Shown here: one piece after another, positions 1-5,002 of the stretch
Position numbering within the stretch: position 1 is the first letter of the stretch
How the letters are laid out: every line of letters starts with the position of its first letter
DNA from: a phage
DNA: 64,000 nucleotides
Reading direction: 5' to 3' (one strand)
NCBI GenBank assembly: GCA_024686575.1
Contig: GCA_024686575.1_4863.1
Made by a program: the position numbers and the translations under genes
Notes under the pieces: generated by a model
The model's input: the letters and a program-made list of their open reading frames with translations, nothing else
Database searches by the model: none
Told to the model about the DNA's origin: nothing

Positions 1-176
1 TTACTCTTATTAGTCAGCAAAGCACTTACACGACCGTCTGGTTCCGGCGGACCATAACTCTCCACACGGATACGTTCTGTGGTCAGGGGCGTATAAACGG
101 TTTCAGCATTAAAAGCATTGACTAAATCGAGCAAGGTTTGACTGTGATGGTGGTTAAAGTCAATAACAAAAGACAT
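1..176 (-). CDS. hypothetical protein, 3-prime partial (runs off window start)
   Basis: ATG at 176-174 preceded by AGGAG Shine-Dalgarno; open frame continues to position 1 (MSFVIDFNHHHSQTLLDLVNAF...). Confidence 0.45.
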   Translation of the reverse strand, partial: MSFVIDFNHHHSQTLLDLVNAFNAETVYTPLTTERIRVESYGPPEPDGRVSALLTNKS

Positions 177-267: not shown

Positions 268-657
268 TTAGTAATCGTACAAAGGATACCGCGCGGAAAT
301 TTCTTTACCTACCCAAAAAGTTAACCGTAGGTTATTAACTCTGCAGTGTGTTCGTACTGACGGGGCAATTGTCGCTTTAACATTCGACGAACACGTACCC
401 GCATCTATTGGCTGGTACGTCTTGCGCTTTGTGTTAACGAGATAAAAGCCACCACCTGGACACAGTTCAGAACGTCCGTAGTTAACCACAGCAAACTCAC
501 CATTTTCCACCGTCACGACTGGTTCATCTTTGTCGCTGAATTTCACAGGTGCGTCAGTTTCCCACATTGGTTTGTATTGCGGGAAGTCCTGAACAGTAAA
601 CGCGTATACTGACGTAGTAACGCAAATTATAAACACAGCTAATACAGCACGCATCAT
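268..657 (-). CDS. hypothetical secreted protein with N-terminal signal peptide
   Basis: 129 aa ORF; hydrophobic N-terminus MMRAVLAVFIICVTTSVYA resembles a cleavable signal peptide; hairpin terminator immediately downstream. Confidence 0.6.
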   Translation of the reverse strand: MMRAVLAVFIICVTTSVYAFTVQDFPQYKPMWETDAPVKFSDKDEPVVTVENGEFAVVNYGRSELCPGGGFYLVNTKRKTYQPIDAGTCSSNVKATIAPSVRTHCRVNNLRLTFWVGKEISARYPLYDY

Positions 658-659
658 AT

Positions 660-1136
660 CTAGTCCTCTTCCAGATAGGGTAGAAGCCAGTCCATTTTCT
701 CCAAACGGTGAATCATGTTGCGAGTGTTTGGCGATACCTGTAAGGCATCGTGGAACTGTTTTTTGAAGTGATGCCAGTGATAAGAGAAAGGTTTAGTTGG
801 ATAGCCCGCTTCCTTGAGAACCTCTTCCCATTCCAACTTCTGGATAAGGTGTTCGTCAACCAAAACCACAACTAAAGCCTTCCAGGCACTCCGACGAAAA
901 TGCCGGGACAACCGATGTTTTAAATCGGCATAACTTTTTCTTTTACTGGACCGTATTGCTGGTGAAGTCTTACTGTGATGAAAAGAACGTCTCGTAAGAT
1001 TCAGAATCTTAACAGGAGTACCCCTAAGCGAACTGTCTGCAATATTCAGTTCATGCTGAGGAACAAGCTCCACACGGCGGATGACGTTTATACGGGTTCC
1101 ATCCGTATCTCGTGTTTCGTAAGCAACACGTATCAT
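660..1136 (-). CDS. hypothetical basic protein
   Basis: 158 aa ORF tightly packed between neighbouring minus-strand genes; His/Lys/Arg rich; no recognisable motif. Confidence 0.55.
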   Translation of the reverse strand: MIRVAYETRDTDGTRINVIRRVELVPQHELNIADSSLRGTPVKILNLTRRSFHHSKTSPAIRSSKRKSYADLKHRLSRHFRRSAWKALVVVLVDEHLIQKLEWEEVLKEAGYPTKPFSYHWHHFKKQFHDALQVSPNTRNMIHRLEKMDWLLPYLEED

Positions 1137-1153
1137 TATACACTCTCGCTCGT

Positions 1154-1639
1154 TTAGACGAATTGACCTTCTGCCATCGAAAGAAAAATGGGAACGCTTT
1201 CAGCGTAATGAGTTAAAAGCTTTTCCTCCGGTGGCGTGTGTGACGAAATAACATTGTAGTTCGTCATACGAAAATACCGTTGGCCGTCAGCAGCAATATA
1301 CCATCGGTCAATCTGGAAGCCTTGTTGGTGAAAGAATCCCAGCGCGGGAATGTTGGTCGGGTGAACACGACAGCTGACGTGTTTACGATCGGAGTTCTGC
1401 TGAAGATACTTAAGCATAAATCTACCGACGCCGCCGCGTCGCGATTCCTCGGGCACAACCATATAGACCAAATGGCCAGGTTCCCATGCCATGATTCCCC
1501 GCACGATATCATCCTCAACAAACATCGTGAGTTTAATAGGCTCCTCACGAATACTGTTTAAGTCGCGTACCCATTCAACCAGTTCAGGATAAACGTTCGC
1601 AGGAATCTTATCCTCGACCACATTAATAACAAGCATCAC
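1154..1639 (-). CDS. putative GNAT-family N-acetyltransferase
   Basis: 161 aa; segment VVPEESRRGGVGRFMLKYL fits the acetyl-CoA binding motif (R/Q-x-x-G-x-G/A) and is followed by a GFF..GF segment typical of the GNAT fold. Confidence 0.5.
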   Translation of the reverse strand: MMLVINVVEDKIPANVYPELVEWVRDLNSIREEPIKLTMFVEDDIVRGIMAWEPGHLVYMVVPEESRRGGVGRFMLKYLQQNSDRKHVSCRVHPTNIPALGFFHQQGFQIDRWYIAADGQRYFRMTNYNVISSHTPPEEKLLTHYAESVPIFLSMAEGQFV

Positions 1640-2274
1640 TTCTCTCCACTAAGCAGGTATATGGCTTCTGCCAATGACAGGGACGGTTTTAACAGCATGT
1701 GTAGCGGCAGGATTGTTGAACGGTGAAACTGTGCCGGTGTTTTTGCCAGGTGTTCCAGATAGCGATTGACCGACATTTCTTGCCAATCGATAGTAGGACG
1801 AACCCAGCTTATCTGTAACCATTTCCCCAATGAGACGTCACGCTTACCGCGTGGCATAATTATACTTAACTTGTACCCGTGGTCGAACTGACGCGGTGAA
1901 TGACCTGGTTCCCAAGGAACTTCGGGACCTAGCGAGTCTGCAAGAAACCCTTCTTTAATTAACACATTTCTGACGGCAGCGAATATCCGTCCTCGTTGCG
2001 CGGTGATCTCTTTGACATGCGCCATGGCATTTAGTTTACGTTTGGTAATCGCAGCGGAAAGCGCGCTGACAAACTGCCCTTCAACATACGGGGCGTTTAA
2101 GCTGCTACGAAACGGCACTACGTAAAACGCCTCCCACAATACTTCTTCGACTGCCGCCAATAACAATGCTTCTTTCTCAGCTGCAGTAAAATCCACAGAC
2201 AGCATTTTGGTAAACGAACCTAATATAGCGCTAAACGGTAGTAGTACAGACCGTTGACGAAATTGTAATTGCAT
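1636..2274 (-). CDS. hypothetical protein
   Basis: 212 aa ORF; AAAGGAAT Shine-Dalgarno upstream of ATG at 2274; 4-nt overlap with downstream gene. Confidence 0.6.
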   Translation of the reverse strand: MQLQFRQRSVLLPFSAILGSFTKMLSVDFTAAEKEALLLAAVEEVLWEAFYVVPFRSSLNAPYVEGQFVSALSAAITKRKLNAMAHVKEITAQRGRIFAAVRNVLIKEGFLADSLGPEVPWEPGHSPRQFDHGYKLSIIMPRGKRDVSLGKWLQISWVRPTIDWQEMSVNRYLEHLAKTPAQFHRSTILPLHMLLKPSLSLAEAIYLLSGEK

Positions 2275-2314
2275 TTTTATATTCCTTTTGGGTCGTGCTT
2301 ACACAGTAATTTAC

Positions 2315-2365
2315 GTAGACGTAATAAAAAAATAAGAAGCCTCTTCTCCCGGAGGAGAAGAGGGC
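2315..2365 (-). terminator. rho-independent terminator
   Basis: 12-bp GC-rich stem GCCTCTTCTCC/GGAGAAGAGGGC followed on minus strand by TTATTTTTTTATT. Confidence 0.7.
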
Positions 2366-2369
2366 TTAA

Positions 2370-2942
2370 TTACACTTTAGGTGCGGTAGTCTGTTGCTTC
2401 GCGTTGCTCTTATTCAGCTTGTATTCAACAACTTTGGCACCAATGGCCATCGAGTTATAAGCAAGCGTCTTAATCGGCCATGTAAAGAACACGGCCTGAG
2501 CAAACAAAGGTAAGAGCGCCGCAATCAGCACATCCGTTAACTCTTGTGGATAATGCAGGTGTGTGTCCCAGGCCATCACGCCAGTAATCACCACAGTGGT
2601 CAGCACCAACAAAACGATAAGGACTTTCTGCGGACCTTTCAAATTTGGCCACAGAGTCAATAACGTTTCTTTGGCGAGCTTTTCATCCATGCTTTCTACT
2701 GCGGCTTTTGCTTGCGATTCAAACGTTTTCGCCATGTTCCCCACCTGCTCAAGGATGAGGGGGCGTAAAGAAGTAAGAATCACGTTAGCAGGTTTAGTGA
2801 CATCAATTTCAACATCACTTCCCAAAGCGGTCTGGGCGGCTGTTTTTAGTCGTTTACTCTCTTCCAGGCTTAATTTATTGGTGCCCGCCTGGATAAGAAC
2901 ATCCAACACATCCGTCGAGGCTTCTTGCAAAGACTGCGACAT
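2370..2942 (-). CDS. hypothetical membrane protein
   Basis: 190 aa; two hydrophobic helices near C-terminus (VLIVLLVLTTVVITGVMAW and LIAALLPLFAQAVFFTW); terminator hairpin downstream. Confidence 0.6.
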   Translation of the reverse strand: MSQSLQEASTDVLDVLIQAGTNKLSLEESKRLKTAAQTALGSDVEIDVTKPANVILTSLRPLILEQVGNMAKTFESQAKAAVESMDEKLAKETLLTLWPNLKGPQKVLIVLLVLTTVVITGVMAWDTHLHYPQELTDVLIAALLPLFAQAVFFTWPIKTLAYNSMAIGAKVVEYKLNKSNAKQQTTAPKV

Positions 2943-2944
2943 CG

Positions 2945-3595
2945 CTATTTCCTCCGGCGTCTTCCTTTCCGCTTACCGGCCTTAGCTTTAGGAACTTTAA
3001 CCTTGGGCGGAAGAAGACTATTTAGGTTTAATAAGTTGACCCTGACGAAGATATTGCCCACCGCCACGGCATCGATACTGTGTTCATCCAATACCGATAA
3101 GTCGCACCGGGTATGGTTAGCGTAGAGCTTGGTAACCGCTTGCTGCATATGCGATTTATCAGTACCCTTTGCTTCCACACCAACGTACGACTTCACAATA
3201 ATAGGATTAAACCCATGGAGATATTTTTCGGGAAACACGTCCCAAAGCGTTCGCCGCAACATCAGTTGCAACTCCACCCCAGACTCGTACGCTGAGAGCT
3301 TAGCTCTTCGCATGAATGGAGTTTCGGTAGCGACAAAAGTCGGCCTTGCCAGTTTTAAAAACTCGCGAAAGCGTTCTTCTAATTCCACCAAACGCGCATC
3401 ACGTTTCCCTACGCACTCGCCAAAGGCGCTATTGTGCGTAGGGTCCGCAACATGAGCCGTTCCCGCCCAGACAACTTCACCTTGAGGTTGGCCAAATTCC
3501 CAGTCGATAACCGCCATCCCAAGATGGGCGGTACCGGGGTCAACAGCCGCAATCCTCACCATACTGTCGGGTAACCTCGGCTCAGGAATCAGCAT
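2945..3595 (-). CDS. ruvC: RuvC-like Holliday junction resolvase
   Basis: IAAVDPGTAHLGMAVI, VATETPFM, KSYVGVEAKGTDKSHMQQAV and DAVAVG align with the four conserved RuvC segments including catalytic acidic residues; Lys/Arg-rich C-terminal tail. Confidence 0.75.
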   Translation of the reverse strand: MLIPEPRLPDSMVRIAAVDPGTAHLGMAVIDWEFGQPQGEVVWAGTAHVADPTHNSAFGECVGKRDARLVELEERFREFLKLARPTFVATETPFMRRAKLSAYESGVELQLMLRRTLWDVFPEKYLHGFNPIIVKSYVGVEAKGTDKSHMQQAVTKLYANHTRCDLSVLDEHSIDAVAVGNIFVRVNLLNLNSLLPPKVKVPKAKAGKRKGRRRRK

Positions 3596-4482
3596 CAGTT
3601 AGCTGTCCCTAAGAACCACGGTGCTGGCTGGCCGATACGGATGGTCAGTGACAGACGATCGTTGGTCTGTGCCAGGTTAGTGAACAGAGAGATGTAGTAC
3701 AACGCTTGCACACCGATAGCTTCGTCGTAGCTGAACTGTGAACCGGTAGCCGACTCACCCGTTTCAGGGGTATCAACGCCAGAGCACAGCGCAATTTCAG
3801 AGATAATCGAACTGCGCGGCGTGCCACGTAGAATCGCCGTCACGTTCATGTATTCCTGAACATCAAACTCAGTCCATGGAATCACCAGGTCTGCGCCCGA
3901 TTCAACATAACGACCGTCGGGGATCTCTACAGTGCCGTCATCGTCGTAATCGTAGTCTGGGAGTTCTTTCGGTACCGGGTTCAGTTCCGCATCGGTATAG
4001 ACGAAATCTTTGACGGTTTCAACACCGTTTTCGCGAGTGATATCCAGGTCAGTGGTCTTCACTGCGCGCATATCGATACGTTTCAGATAGTACGCCCAGT
4101 AATCCCGCGCGCCGATAGTTTCACGAGTACGGAAAGCGTACTGTTTACGTTGCTCATCAGATAAGTCATTATCCAATGTACGCAGTACCAATGGAACGCG
4201 CGAGAACATCCCTGACGTAATCGGGGATTTCGCGACAGGAACAACGTCTGCCACAACATCAGACTGATCAACAATGTGTCCGCGATTGCCTACGCACATG
4301 TATCCTAAATGCGGGCGTGTAGCGCCATCGGGCACTTTCGAGGTCATGAGTTTATAAAACTCGTTCATCGTGGATTTCTGTGGGTACTGCACGTCAGCGC
4401 CTGTCAATAACGCGGTCGTAAGTCGCATCGCGTTAAGAGTCACTGTTGACAGTTTACCATCGTAAACTTTGGTGTTAGCCAT
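3595..4482 (-). CDS. hypothetical protein
   Basis: 295 aa ORF; start overlaps stop of upstream gene; no recognisable motif. Confidence 0.65.
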   Translation of the reverse strand: MANTKVYDGKLSTVTLNAMRLTTALLTGADVQYPQKSTMNEFYKLMTSKVPDGATRPHLGYMCVGNRGHIVDQSDVVADVVPVAKSPITSGMFSRVPLVLRTLDNDLSDEQRKQYAFRTRETIGARDYWAYYLKRIDMRAVKTTDLDITRENGVETVKDFVYTDAELNPVPKELPDYDYDDDGTVEIPDGRYVESGADLVIPWTEFDVQEYMNVTAILRGTPRSSIISEIALCSGVDTPETGESATGSQFSYDEAIGVQALYYISLFTNLAQTNDRLSLTIRIGQPAPWFLGTAN

Positions 4483-5002
4483 TTAAAAATTCTCCTGGGC
4501 GAAACCCGTCGAGTGCCCGTTTAGTTACCAGCTGCGCCAGCTTACGGGGAGTTGGGTCAACAAAAGTAATCGCAATCGTGCCTTTGAAAGATAGATGGTG
4601 CGGGATTAAGCGCGCCTCATACGATTCCATTTCTGGGGTAATCGGTTCAACCATGATATCGTAGGTGTCGAGCTGGAGACCCAGCTCATCGACAATATAC
4701 GGAACTAATTCATGGCTCCATTCCACCGCACCTTTCGGGACTTCAACCGTTACGTCTTTAAGTAACTTGTTTAAGTCCGCACGAGTCAGGTAAAACTCTT
4801 GGGTGCCGTGTACTCCATTTACAAAGCGCGCCGCAACTTTAGACTCCACGCCTTTAGCGCGTCGCTCTGCTTGGGTCAGCGGCCACACCCCACGTGGGTT
4901 AAACTCGTAGTTATTTTCACTATACGATAACTTAAAAACGTAATTGATTCTCTCAACCAGAATCTGTTTCGGGGTTTTTGATAAATCTATACGGTATCCC
5001 AT
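4475..5002 (-). CDS. hypothetical protein
   Basis: 175 aa ORF in operon-like array with 8-nt overlap to downstream gene. Confidence 0.6.
   Translation of the reverse strand: MGYRIDLSKTPKQILVERINYVFKLSYSENNYEFNPRGVWPLTQAERRAKGVESKVAARFVNGVHGTQEFYLTRADLNKLLKDVTVEVPKGAVEWSHELVPYIVDELGLQLDTYDIMVEPITPEMESYEARLIPHHLSFKGTIAITFVDPTPRKLAQLVTKRALDGFRPGEFLNG

Follow-up and report, generated by a model that had tools for sequence, protein, structure and literature searches.

The gp86–gp90 genes of the Salmonella jumbo phage SPN3US occupy the slot that contains the lysis cassette in phiKZ-type phages, and the same five genes are present at the left end of the 64,000-nucleotide stretch of phage DNA analysed here (the window). 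In the reading that we favour, they are genes of an SPN3US-type nucleus-forming jumbo phage (Seoulvirus) that make up a clade-conserved non-virion block rather than an accessory island, are divided between two transcription units and have the roles proposed below. Taken as a whole, this reading has in our view about an even chance of being correct.

The window DNA is 99.4–99.5% identical to that of the Salmonella jumbo phages SPN3US and SEGD1. The five minus-strand open reading frames (ORFs) between positions 268 and 2942, all of which were placed and sized correctly in the original prediction according to the ORF listing, correspond from left to right to SPN3US gp90, gp89, gp88, gp87 and gp86 (locus tags SPN3US_0086–0090 for gp86–gp90, and SEGD1_090–094 in SEGD1). 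The gp88 and gp89 proteins are 100% identical to their SPN3US/SEGD1 counterparts, and gp86, gp87 and gp90 are 98–99% identical. All five have orthologues at the protein level (20–80% identity) in other phage genera and are therefore real genes rather than chance ORFs. They are already catalogued as SPN3US genes, although four of the five are labelled 'hypothetical protein' in public records, and a crystal structure of the acetyltransferase gp88 has already been deposited. Since public SPN3US-type genomes already carry annotations for these genes and the structure of the GNAT is available, the original finding adds little. A sharper framing is that of a conserved module that lies in the chimallivirus lysis-cassette slot and does not encode virion proteins, in which the membrane protein gp86 and the GNAT gp88 are linked over deep divergence.

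Gene order and the phiKZ-type slot

All of the genes described here are on the minus strand. The upstream anchor of the slot is gp85 (2945..3595), which encodes a RuvC-like resolvase (phrog_159, E 2e-38). The gp86 gene (2370..2942) starts 2 nt past gp85 and is for this reason probably the last gene of a gp82–gp86 unit. It is followed by an intrinsic terminator hairpin (2363–2340; −20.9 kcal/mol, z −4.6) that lies between gp86 and gp87 and is itself followed by a U-run, UUAUUUUUUU; none of 200 shuffled sequences (0/200) folded as well. The remaining four genes, gp87 (1636..2274), gp88 (1154..1639), gp89 (660..1136) and gp90 (268..657), end at a second intrinsic terminator hairpin with a UUCG loop (260–237; −21 kcal/mol, z −6.2). 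Downstream, the slot is anchored by gp91, of which only the 5′ part (1..175), recognized by its start codon and sequence, lies inside the window edge. The original prediction that the cluster ends at a terminator is borne out by the hairpin at 260–237, but the hairpin at 2363–2340 had been overlooked and, because this strong terminator divides gp86 from gp87–gp90, the five genes are not one operon. We propose that there are two transcription units, in which gp86, with its own terminator, would be the final gene of the virion/RuvC operon while gp87-gp88-gp89-gp90 would form a second, tightly packed unit that ends at the 237–260 hairpin.

A tblastn search of 50,697 phage records detected gp88 in 73, gp86 in 72 and gp90 in 64. 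The gp86 and gp88 genes have the same host-genus breakdown, which spans the whole SPN3US-like clade, and their position, following the RuvC-like gene, is the same at every locus examined, with synteny maintained in Caitlin, Asesino, Wellington, Derbicus and STsAS. With gp88 and gp86 in 73 and 72 records across the clade and in a fixed position, the earlier description of the cluster as accessory-looking does not hold. Even metagenomic relatives with 21–27% identity retain the gp86 and GNAT pair, and at two such loci (L020 and L022) genes for a RuvC-like protein, a gp86-like protein and a GNAT occur in that order and are followed by a DUF7941 or gp91-like gene. It is this co-conservation that suggests a functional link between gp86 and gp88.

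The gp85 protein is homologous to phiKZ ORF140 (gp140) (Thomas 2016 Table S1, PMC5105663). In phiKZ, Psa21, Phabio, Noxifer and PS119XW, the slot after the RuvC gene contains a spanin, a holin, a DUF7941-like gene and an endolysin, and the phiKZ lysis cassette gp141/141.1/142/143/144 (spanin-holin-regulator-endolysin) has been experimentally defined (Manohar et al. 2026, PMC12894885), its holin gp142 having been proven by complementation of a lambda S-null defect and by uncoupler experiments. Both the phiKZ cassette and SPN3US gp86–gp90 directly follow the RuvC-like gene, both the phiKZ holin and gp86 are membrane proteins that begin with a long cytoplasmic helical domain, and in both phages a member of the broad DUF7941/gp83 group is encoded downstream. 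Unlike phiKZ, however, the SPN3US slot contains neither spanins nor an endolysin, gp86 has two transmembrane domains (TMDs) rather than the one in phiKZ gp142, and phiKZ has no equivalents of the GNAT gp88 or of gp87, gp89 and gp90. In SPLA5c, a relative with 97.7% identity, a candidate spanin pair is located ∼90 kb away (189497–190501). At the Derbicus locus a transglycosylase is found in the same slot where SPN3US has gp90, four genes downstream of the gp86 equivalent, and CR5, Phobos and EarlPhillipIV carry near-identical copies of it at the corresponding map position. On the downstream side, gp91 is a virion protein and a distant relative of the DUF7941/gp83 family as indicated by an iterative search of a very small database, although it has no direct match to Pfam DUF7941; its putative equivalence to phiKZ gp143 is based on this search and on its position.

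The membrane protein gp86 and lysis

The 190-residue gp86 is an inner-membrane protein with two predicted transmembrane helices, in agreement with the original prediction, comprising residues 103–127 (TM1, nt 2562–2636) and 134–157 (TM2, nt 2472–2543). The predicted layout is a helical cytoplasmic N-domain of ∼100 residues, the two helices, which are separated by a short acidic loop, and a cytoplasmic tail rich in lysine, and the protein is predicted to have an N-in/C-in topology with a positive-inside tail. Conserved motifs precede TM1 (KETxxTLWP) and follow TM2 (PIKTLAY). This is a tiny family: a set of 1.84 billion proteins includes 19 representatives, each with 170–210 residues and the same architecture. 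The gp86 profile gave nothing below E 0.1 against the PDB, and a related-locus search of IMG/VR with two distant gp86 members as query retrieved nothing.

The generic features of a holin are present in gp86, namely at least one TMD, small size (190 aa) and a predicted charged cytoplasmic C-terminus. With class II holins (two TMDs, N-in/C-in, for example, phage 21 S68) it has in common the number of TMDs, the predicted topology and a basic C-terminal tail, but the ∼100-residue cytoplasmic N-domain is absent from classical class II holins and there is no sequence homology. Comparison with the single phiKZ holin sequence using hhalign gave a probability of 5.6%, and comparison with a five-sequence alignment of phiKZ-type holins gave a non-significant 45.5% (E 2e-4) over 48 columns of the N-domain only. 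In SPN3US, gp86 is not next to an endolysin, and in SPLA5c the endolysin-like genes are tens of kb away. No holin or spanin is annotated across the whole SPLA5c genome, and small transmembrane ORFs that lie close to a transglycosylase at another site in the genome are alternative holin candidates. Of the proteins in this genome, gp86 is the best candidate for a holin-like protein that times lysis, a function that we regard as possible.

A more specific proposal is that gp86 is the missing holin of SPN3US-like phages, with two TMDs and a large cytoplasmic regulatory domain at its N-terminus, that gp88, gp87 and gp89 tune lysis by acetylation, and that gp90 is a periplasmic accessory protein. 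As a complete scheme this is unlikely, albeit with an appreciable chance of being right. If it were true, gp86 would be a new type of holin and the evolutionary or functional equivalent of the phiKZ class IIIb holin gp142, kept in an ancestral lysis-cassette slot, and the level of acetyl-CoA could report the energy state of the host to gp88-controlled lysis timing. The conserved slot, the linkage of gp86 to gp88 and the lack of an annotated holin or spanin in SPLA5c make it worth asking whether gp86 acts as a holin and whether gp88 influences the timing of lysis or the acetylome of infected cells, and an amber-mutant genetic system is established for SPN3US.

The acetyltransferase gp88 and the adjacent gp87 and gp89

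The gp88 protein contains 161 residues when translated from GTG and 160 from the annotated ATG at 1636. Its assignment as a GNAT acetyltransferase, as originally predicted, is secure by profile search since two Pfam thresholds are passed (Acetyltransf_1, 25.9 bits with a cut-off of 20.7; Acetyltransf_10, 24.1 with a cut-off of 23.6), while the score for Acetyltransf_7 (26.1) is slightly below the cut-off of 27. It also matches phrog_7861 ('acetyltransferase', E 1e-78) and is identical in 161 of 161 residues to chain A of PDB 7DQG, a 'Putative acetyltransferase'. A literature search found no paper describing the 7DQG structure or any function for it, and no published acetyl-transfer assay for gp88. 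The acetyl-CoA pyrophosphate-binding loop of GNATs is motif A, Q/R-x-x-G-x-G/A, which in gp88 is R67-R-G-G-V-G72 (nt 1424–1441). RxxGxG/A is kept in all nine aligned members of the gp88 family (9/9), including those with 30–40% identity, and these nine also have a conserved VEDD motif. A conserved C-terminal extension, PPEE...PIFLS, is particular to this family. A general-acid tyrosine in motif B is common, but not universal, among GNATs. In gp88 and throughout its family this position is occupied by phenylalanine (F103), whereas the paralogous GNAT gp95 has tyrosine, and because of this replacement the chemistry of gp88 could be atypical or weak.

The closest relatives of gp88 in the PDB and NCBIfam are an N-terminal acetyltransferase-like protein, YjaB, SSO0209/archaeal NAT, Naa20, RimI and PRK10562. 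RimI, YjaB and the archaeal and eukaryotic NATs (PF00583 clan) share with gp88 the GNAT profile, the RxxGxG motif and a size of ∼160 residues and are its best-scoring characterized relatives, yet the scores are 20–26 bits compared with equivalog cut-offs of 86–134, and all NCBIfam GNAT matches are sub-threshold. They also differ from gp88 in the motif-B tyrosine, replaced by phenylalanine in gp88, and in the C-terminal extension, which belongs to the gp88 family. Assignment as RimI or another ribosomal-protein alanine acetyltransferase was rejected on the NCBIfam equivalog cut-offs (22.7 bits against 86.4 for RimI TIGR01575, and 25.9 against 125 for PRK10562). In GNAT toxin–antitoxin modules, a small RHH antitoxin gene lies upstream of the GNAT. 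No AtaT or TacT chain was among the PDB matches of gp88 at E≤1, and the upstream gene encodes the 212-residue gp87, which matches neither RHH nor any other Pfam family, so a GNAT toxin of the AtaT/TacT type was also rejected.

Sequence prediction indicates that gp88 is cytoplasmic since it has neither a signal peptide nor a transmembrane helix. A protein confined to the cytoplasm cannot act directly on envelope structures together with the secreted gp90, which limits the earlier suggestion that an acetyltransferase beside envelope-targeted proteins could modify host or phage targets. From its predicted fold and its cofactor motif, gp88 is expected to be a cytoplasmic acetyl-CoA-dependent GNAT. 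Its putative substrate is most likely a protein of the host or the phage, an amine of which would be acetylated during infection, and the co-translated gp87 and the adjacent gp89 may be its partners or targets.

The stop codon of gp87 overlaps the gp88 start by 1 nt. This cytoplasmic protein of 212 residues contains the conserved motif FDHGYxLxxxMPRGKRxxSLGxWLQ. The 158-residue gp89 is a basic cytoplasmic protein (net charge +9) that is indeed rich in histidine (7.0%) and arginine (10.1%), as was first noted, and has no cysteine. It belongs to phrog_9187, which is of unknown function, and has orthologues in five phage genera and at the metagenomic locus L022 (HMM E 6.9e-14). Profile searches of the PDB gave nothing below E 0.1 for gp87 and nothing below E 0.25 for gp89, and neither protein matches a solved structure or a known family. 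The possibility that gp89 is an HNH endonuclease, for which a check had been recommended, was discarded as it has no Pfam match to HNH or any other family at E≤1, no cysteine and no PDB profile match.

A different role for gp88 would be that of a host-takeover enzyme, like the phiKMV-type Rac or ribosomal-protein acetyltransferases, that acts on host RNA polymerase or translation, with gp86–gp90 otherwise unrelated and without a role in lysis. A Rac-like action on host proteins has been predicted for the GNATs of jumbo phages (PMC7824862; PMC13282480), and such a role is consistent with the weak nearest relatives of gp88 being RimI and NAT enzymes and with gp88 being a non-virion, cytoplasmic protein. 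However, the gp88 gene is located among late virion genes and not in an early-gene block, and the strict linkage of gp88 to gp86 would be left unexplained. Moreover, chimalliviruses encode their own RNA polymerases, which lessens the need for takeover of that of the host. We consider this role credible but improbable.

The secreted protein gp90 and the status of the block

The 129-residue gp90 is a secreted periplasmic small β-protein. In accord with its original description as a signal-peptide protein, it has a hydrophobic N-terminal segment (residues 1–23) and a conserved signal-peptidase-I site between A and F. The predicted signal peptide consists of residues 1–19 (nt 601–657), with cleavage between VYA and F, and its conservation indicates that gp90 is exported to the periplasm by signal peptidase I. 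A disulfide probably links its two invariant cysteines. A lipoprotein or o-spanin was rejected as the signal-peptide cysteine is missing in four of nine aligned homologues (P0027, P0028, P0031 and P0033). Small secreted β-proteins form a paralogue family in SPN3US-like phages, and gp90, one of its members, joined the gp86–gp90 block later; neither the CR5/Derbicus subclade nor distant loci that retain gp86 and the GNAT have it.

The periplasmic proteins of phages frequently have a role in exclusion, and the predicted periplasmic location of gp90, together with the co-conservation of gp86 and the GNAT in the same order even at 21–27% identity, would fit a single accessory host-interaction module in which the GNAT cooperates with the secreted protein and the membrane protein in modifying targets in the envelope or the host, with resistance or superinfection exclusion as examples of the outcome. 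This is doubtful, since the block is present in the same 72–73 genomes of the clade, a terminator splits gp86 from the other genes, the GNAT has no export signal and hence no route to the envelope, and gp90 is absent where gp86 and the GNAT are still found. In addition, the proteins of the cluster have no matches among the PADLOC defence models.

Related Erwinia jumbo phages encode active spermidine acetyltransferases (PMC9992855), raising the question of whether gp88 is a polyamine (spermidine) N-acetyltransferase. These enzymes, Caitlin gp103 (YP_009292176) and that of phiEaH2 (YP_007237670), are also GNATs and are encoded a few kb from a gp88-type gene in the same genomes, but they are orthologues of the SPN3US virion protein gp95 and not of gp88. 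The gp88 HMM matches gp95-type proteins only at E ∼1e-4 to 2e-3 and the two families differ at the motif-B tyrosine, making this activity for gp88 very improbable. SPN3US gp95 was itself inactive in the spermidine acetyltransferase assay (PMC9992855).

That gp86–gp90 are virion structural or assembly genes like their neighbours is scarcely credible for, although they are flanked by genes for the virion proteins gp81–84 and gp91, gp94 and gp95, all of which are listed in the SPN3US virion mass-spectrometry table (Thomas 2016, PMC5105663 Table S4), and gp86 is probably co-transcribed with gp82–gp85, none of gp85–gp90 is listed in that table, gp90 is predicted to be secreted and gp86 to be embedded in the membrane. 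The original prediction had held that it would be contradicted if the GNAT assignment failed and the cluster were uniformly conserved as structural genes; the cluster is conserved, but the GNAT assignment stands and gp86–gp90 are non-structural.

Identity, conservation and transcription of the five genes

Across their full length, the initial 6 kb of the window share 99.5% identity with Enterobacteria phage SEGD1 and 99.4% with Salmonella phage SPN3US, nucleus-forming jumbo phages of the genus Seoulvirus and relatives of phiKZ. The five minus-strand ORFs of the original prediction were found exactly where it placed them and are, from left to right, SPN3US_0090 (gp90, 268-657), 0089 (gp89, 660-1136), 0088 (gp88, 1154-1639), 0087 (gp87, 1636-2274) and 0086 (gp86, 2370-2942). 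The protein features claimed for them were also borne out by a simple hydropathy and composition script: gp90 has a hydrophobic N-terminal segment (residues 1-23), gp89 is His/Arg-rich (7% His, 10% Arg, net charge +9) and gp86 has two hydrophobic helices (residues ∼103-127 and 134-157). The gene set is already annotated in a model jumbo phage, and one product has already been crystallized. In the SEGD1 GenBank record (L002; SEGD1_086-088, 090, 093) three separate CDSs stand for the gp84 region, and gp86 and gp89 are annotated with shorter CDSs than those of SPN3US. In several LR5359xx SPFM assemblies, the matches to this region consist only of numerous short pieces.

The genes had been described as an accessory-looking cluster, but their presence in the same order across the SPN3US-like clade speaks against that label. 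In tblastn searches of 50,697 phage genomes, gp88, gp86 and gp90 were found in 73, 72 and 64 records, respectively, all of them from SPN3US-like phages whose hosts are Salmonella, Escherichia, Proteus, Erwinia and Cronobacter. The order virion genes, RuvC-like gene, gp86, gp87, GNAT and gp89 is kept in Caitlin, Asesino, Wellington, STsAS and Derbicus; every orthologue was recovered by BLAST and HMM searches, and only gp90 of the five is patchily distributed within the clade. Sequence divergence is faster in the gp86-gp90 proteins than in the virion proteins on either side, with identities to relatives outside the SPN3US species of 20-51% for gp87 versus 63-92% for gp84. Among 1.84 billion representative proteins searched with a profile, only 19 gp86 relatives emerged, all sharing one architecture. 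For three of the most remote relatives (21-27% identity), the encoding contigs carry DUF7941, DUF7208 and RuvC-like genes and then a gp86-like gene, which in the two contigs that reach far enough is followed by a gp88-type GNAT and a DUF7941 or gp91-like gene. Since these distant contigs keep the gp86-like gene and the GNAT, with gp87-like or gp89-like genes present only sometimes and gp90 never, gp86 and the GNAT form the durable core.

The five genes also do not constitute a single operon. The terminator predicted at the end of the cluster is present after gp90 (hairpin and U-tract at 260-237, minus strand; −21 kcal/mol, z −6.2), but a second one after gp86 had been missed (2363-2340, minus strand; −20.9 kcal/mol, z −4.6). 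The gap from the RuvC-like gene gp85 to the gp86 start is 2 nt, as is that between gp89 and gp90, and the annotated GNAT start shares one base with the stop of gp87. From the terminators and this spacing we propose two units, gp82-gp86, in which gp86 is last, and gp87-gp90.

The acetyltransferase gp88 and its neighbours

The GNAT assignment of gp88 is well founded. The protein exceeds the Pfam gathering thresholds of Acetyltransf_1 and Acetyltransf_10, belongs to phrog_7861 ('acetyltransferase') and matches PDB chain 7DQG_A ('Putative acetyltransferase' in the deposition) at every one of 161 residues; no publication on this entry was found in the searchable literature library. In an alignment of orthologues down to ∼30% identity, the RxxGxG/A acetyl-CoA loop (R67-G72) is kept, as is a VEDD motif; Phe stands throughout where motif B commonly has its catalytic Tyr, and there is a conserved C-terminal extension peculiar to the family. 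Pfam, the PDB identity and the alignment together confirm the fold family and cofactor motif. The genes are not structural: the published SPN3US virion proteome lists gp81-84, gp91, gp94 and gp95, and gp85-gp90 are all absent (PMC5105663 Table S4). The nearest characterized relatives by sequence (an N-terminal acetyltransferase-like protein, YjaB, an archaeal NAT, Naa20 and RimI) are protein N-terminal or lysine acetyltransferases, all scoring far below family cut-offs. Most likely, gp88 is a cytoplasmic protein-amine acetyltransferase, with gp87 and gp89 as possible partners.

A second GNAT, SPN3US gp95, is encoded ∼4 kb away, just left of the window (SPN3US locus L003, 966-1430), and is, by mass spectrometry, a virion protein retained in tailless particles. 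The spermidine N-acetyltransferases of Erwinia phages Caitlin and phiEaH2 are active in an assay in which SPN3US gp95 is inactive (PMC9992855); these enzymes are gp95 orthologues and not orthologues of gp88. Phage SPLA5c has a third annotated 'acetyltransferase' (182571-183059).

The gp87 alignment shows a conserved FDHGY...MPRGKR...WLQ motif; its predicted structure is of medium confidence only and the model gave no informative fold match. No gp89 relatives were detectable outside the clade, and an HNH endonuclease was rejected for gp89, which has no HNH signature in Pfam or profile-versus-PDB searches. SPLA5c 175818-177527 (L016 25818-27527) contains four small ORFs (∼127-178 aa), three with an N-terminal hydrophobic segment; the gp90 HMM matches that at 177144-177527 (E 8.6e-11) and, weakly, that at 175818-176219 (E 0.024). 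These matches place gp90 in a family of paralogues in these phages, made up of small secreted beta-proteins, from which it is most likely a later-acquired periplasmic protein. Exactly at the gp90 position, Derbicus encodes a 226-aa transglycosylase (L008 10867-11547) with near-identical genes in CR5, Phobos and EarlPhillipIV by tblastn; no SPN3US-type Salmonella phages were among its top tblastn hits or most frequent host genera.

The post-RuvC slot and candidate lysis proteins

In fnug/phiKZ, Psa21, Phabio, Noxifer and PS119XW, the gene order directly after the RuvC-like gene is an Rz-like i-spanin, an overlapping and small o-spanin, a protein with one TMD and an extended cytoplasmic domain at its N terminus, a DUF7941-like protein and a KZ144-type endolysin; in RP12, too, RuvC is followed by spanin-like genes and a gene for a one-TMD protein. 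The phiKZ genes have been shown experimentally to be a lysis cassette, in which gp142 acts as the holin ('class IIIb') and gp143 as a regulator binding the cytoplasmic domain of gp142 (Manohar et al. 2026, PMC12894885). The SPN3US block fills the same slot and is followed by the virion gene gp91, which, going by its location and by iterative searching of a tiny database, may be related to DUF7941.

In gp86, a ∼100-aa cytoplasmic helical domain precedes two TMDs joined by a short acidic loop, with a Lys-rich tail at the end; the predicted topology is N-in/C-in, and this layout and topology make the protein the best holin-like candidate by architecture. The hhalign probability against the phiKZ holin family rose from 5.6% to 45.5% with a deeper holin alignment, over just 48 N-terminal columns; a two-TMD protein at the same position in a Vibrio jumbo phage aligns at 83%. 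We regard a holin-like role of gp86 as possible but less likely than not; in the most likely picture it is an inner-membrane protein that, judging from position and architecture, may serve as the holin-like factor of the clade. The idea of a gp86 holin linked to the GNAT merits experiment.

The fully annotated genome of SPLA5c (97.7% identical) has no annotated holin or spanin. Two adjacent genes of unannotated function ∼90 kb away plausibly resemble a separated spanin pair: 189497-190012 (L016 39497-40012) encodes an i-spanin-like protein of 171 aa whose N terminus holds a TMD and whose C terminus is Pro-rich, and 190022-190501 (L016 40022-40501) an o-spanin-like protein of 159 aa with a clean lipobox, LLTGC. 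A genome scan found endolysin-like genes elsewhere and, together with the distant spanin-like pair, these suggest that lysis genes are dispersed in the clade. Near the annotated transglycosylase (SPLA5c 184582-185304), small ORFs for TM proteins of 63-88 aa, at 185946-186212 (L016 35946-36212) and L016 31435-31917, are candidate holins alternative to gp86; the 88-aa ORF is missing from the record's annotation. Finally, phiKZ gp143 (L010 9628-10161) and SPN3US gp83 (window 4475-5002) share phrog_2935. The gp83 protein is found in virions, tailless heads included, which sits awkwardly with a purely cytoplasmic role as a lysis regulator.
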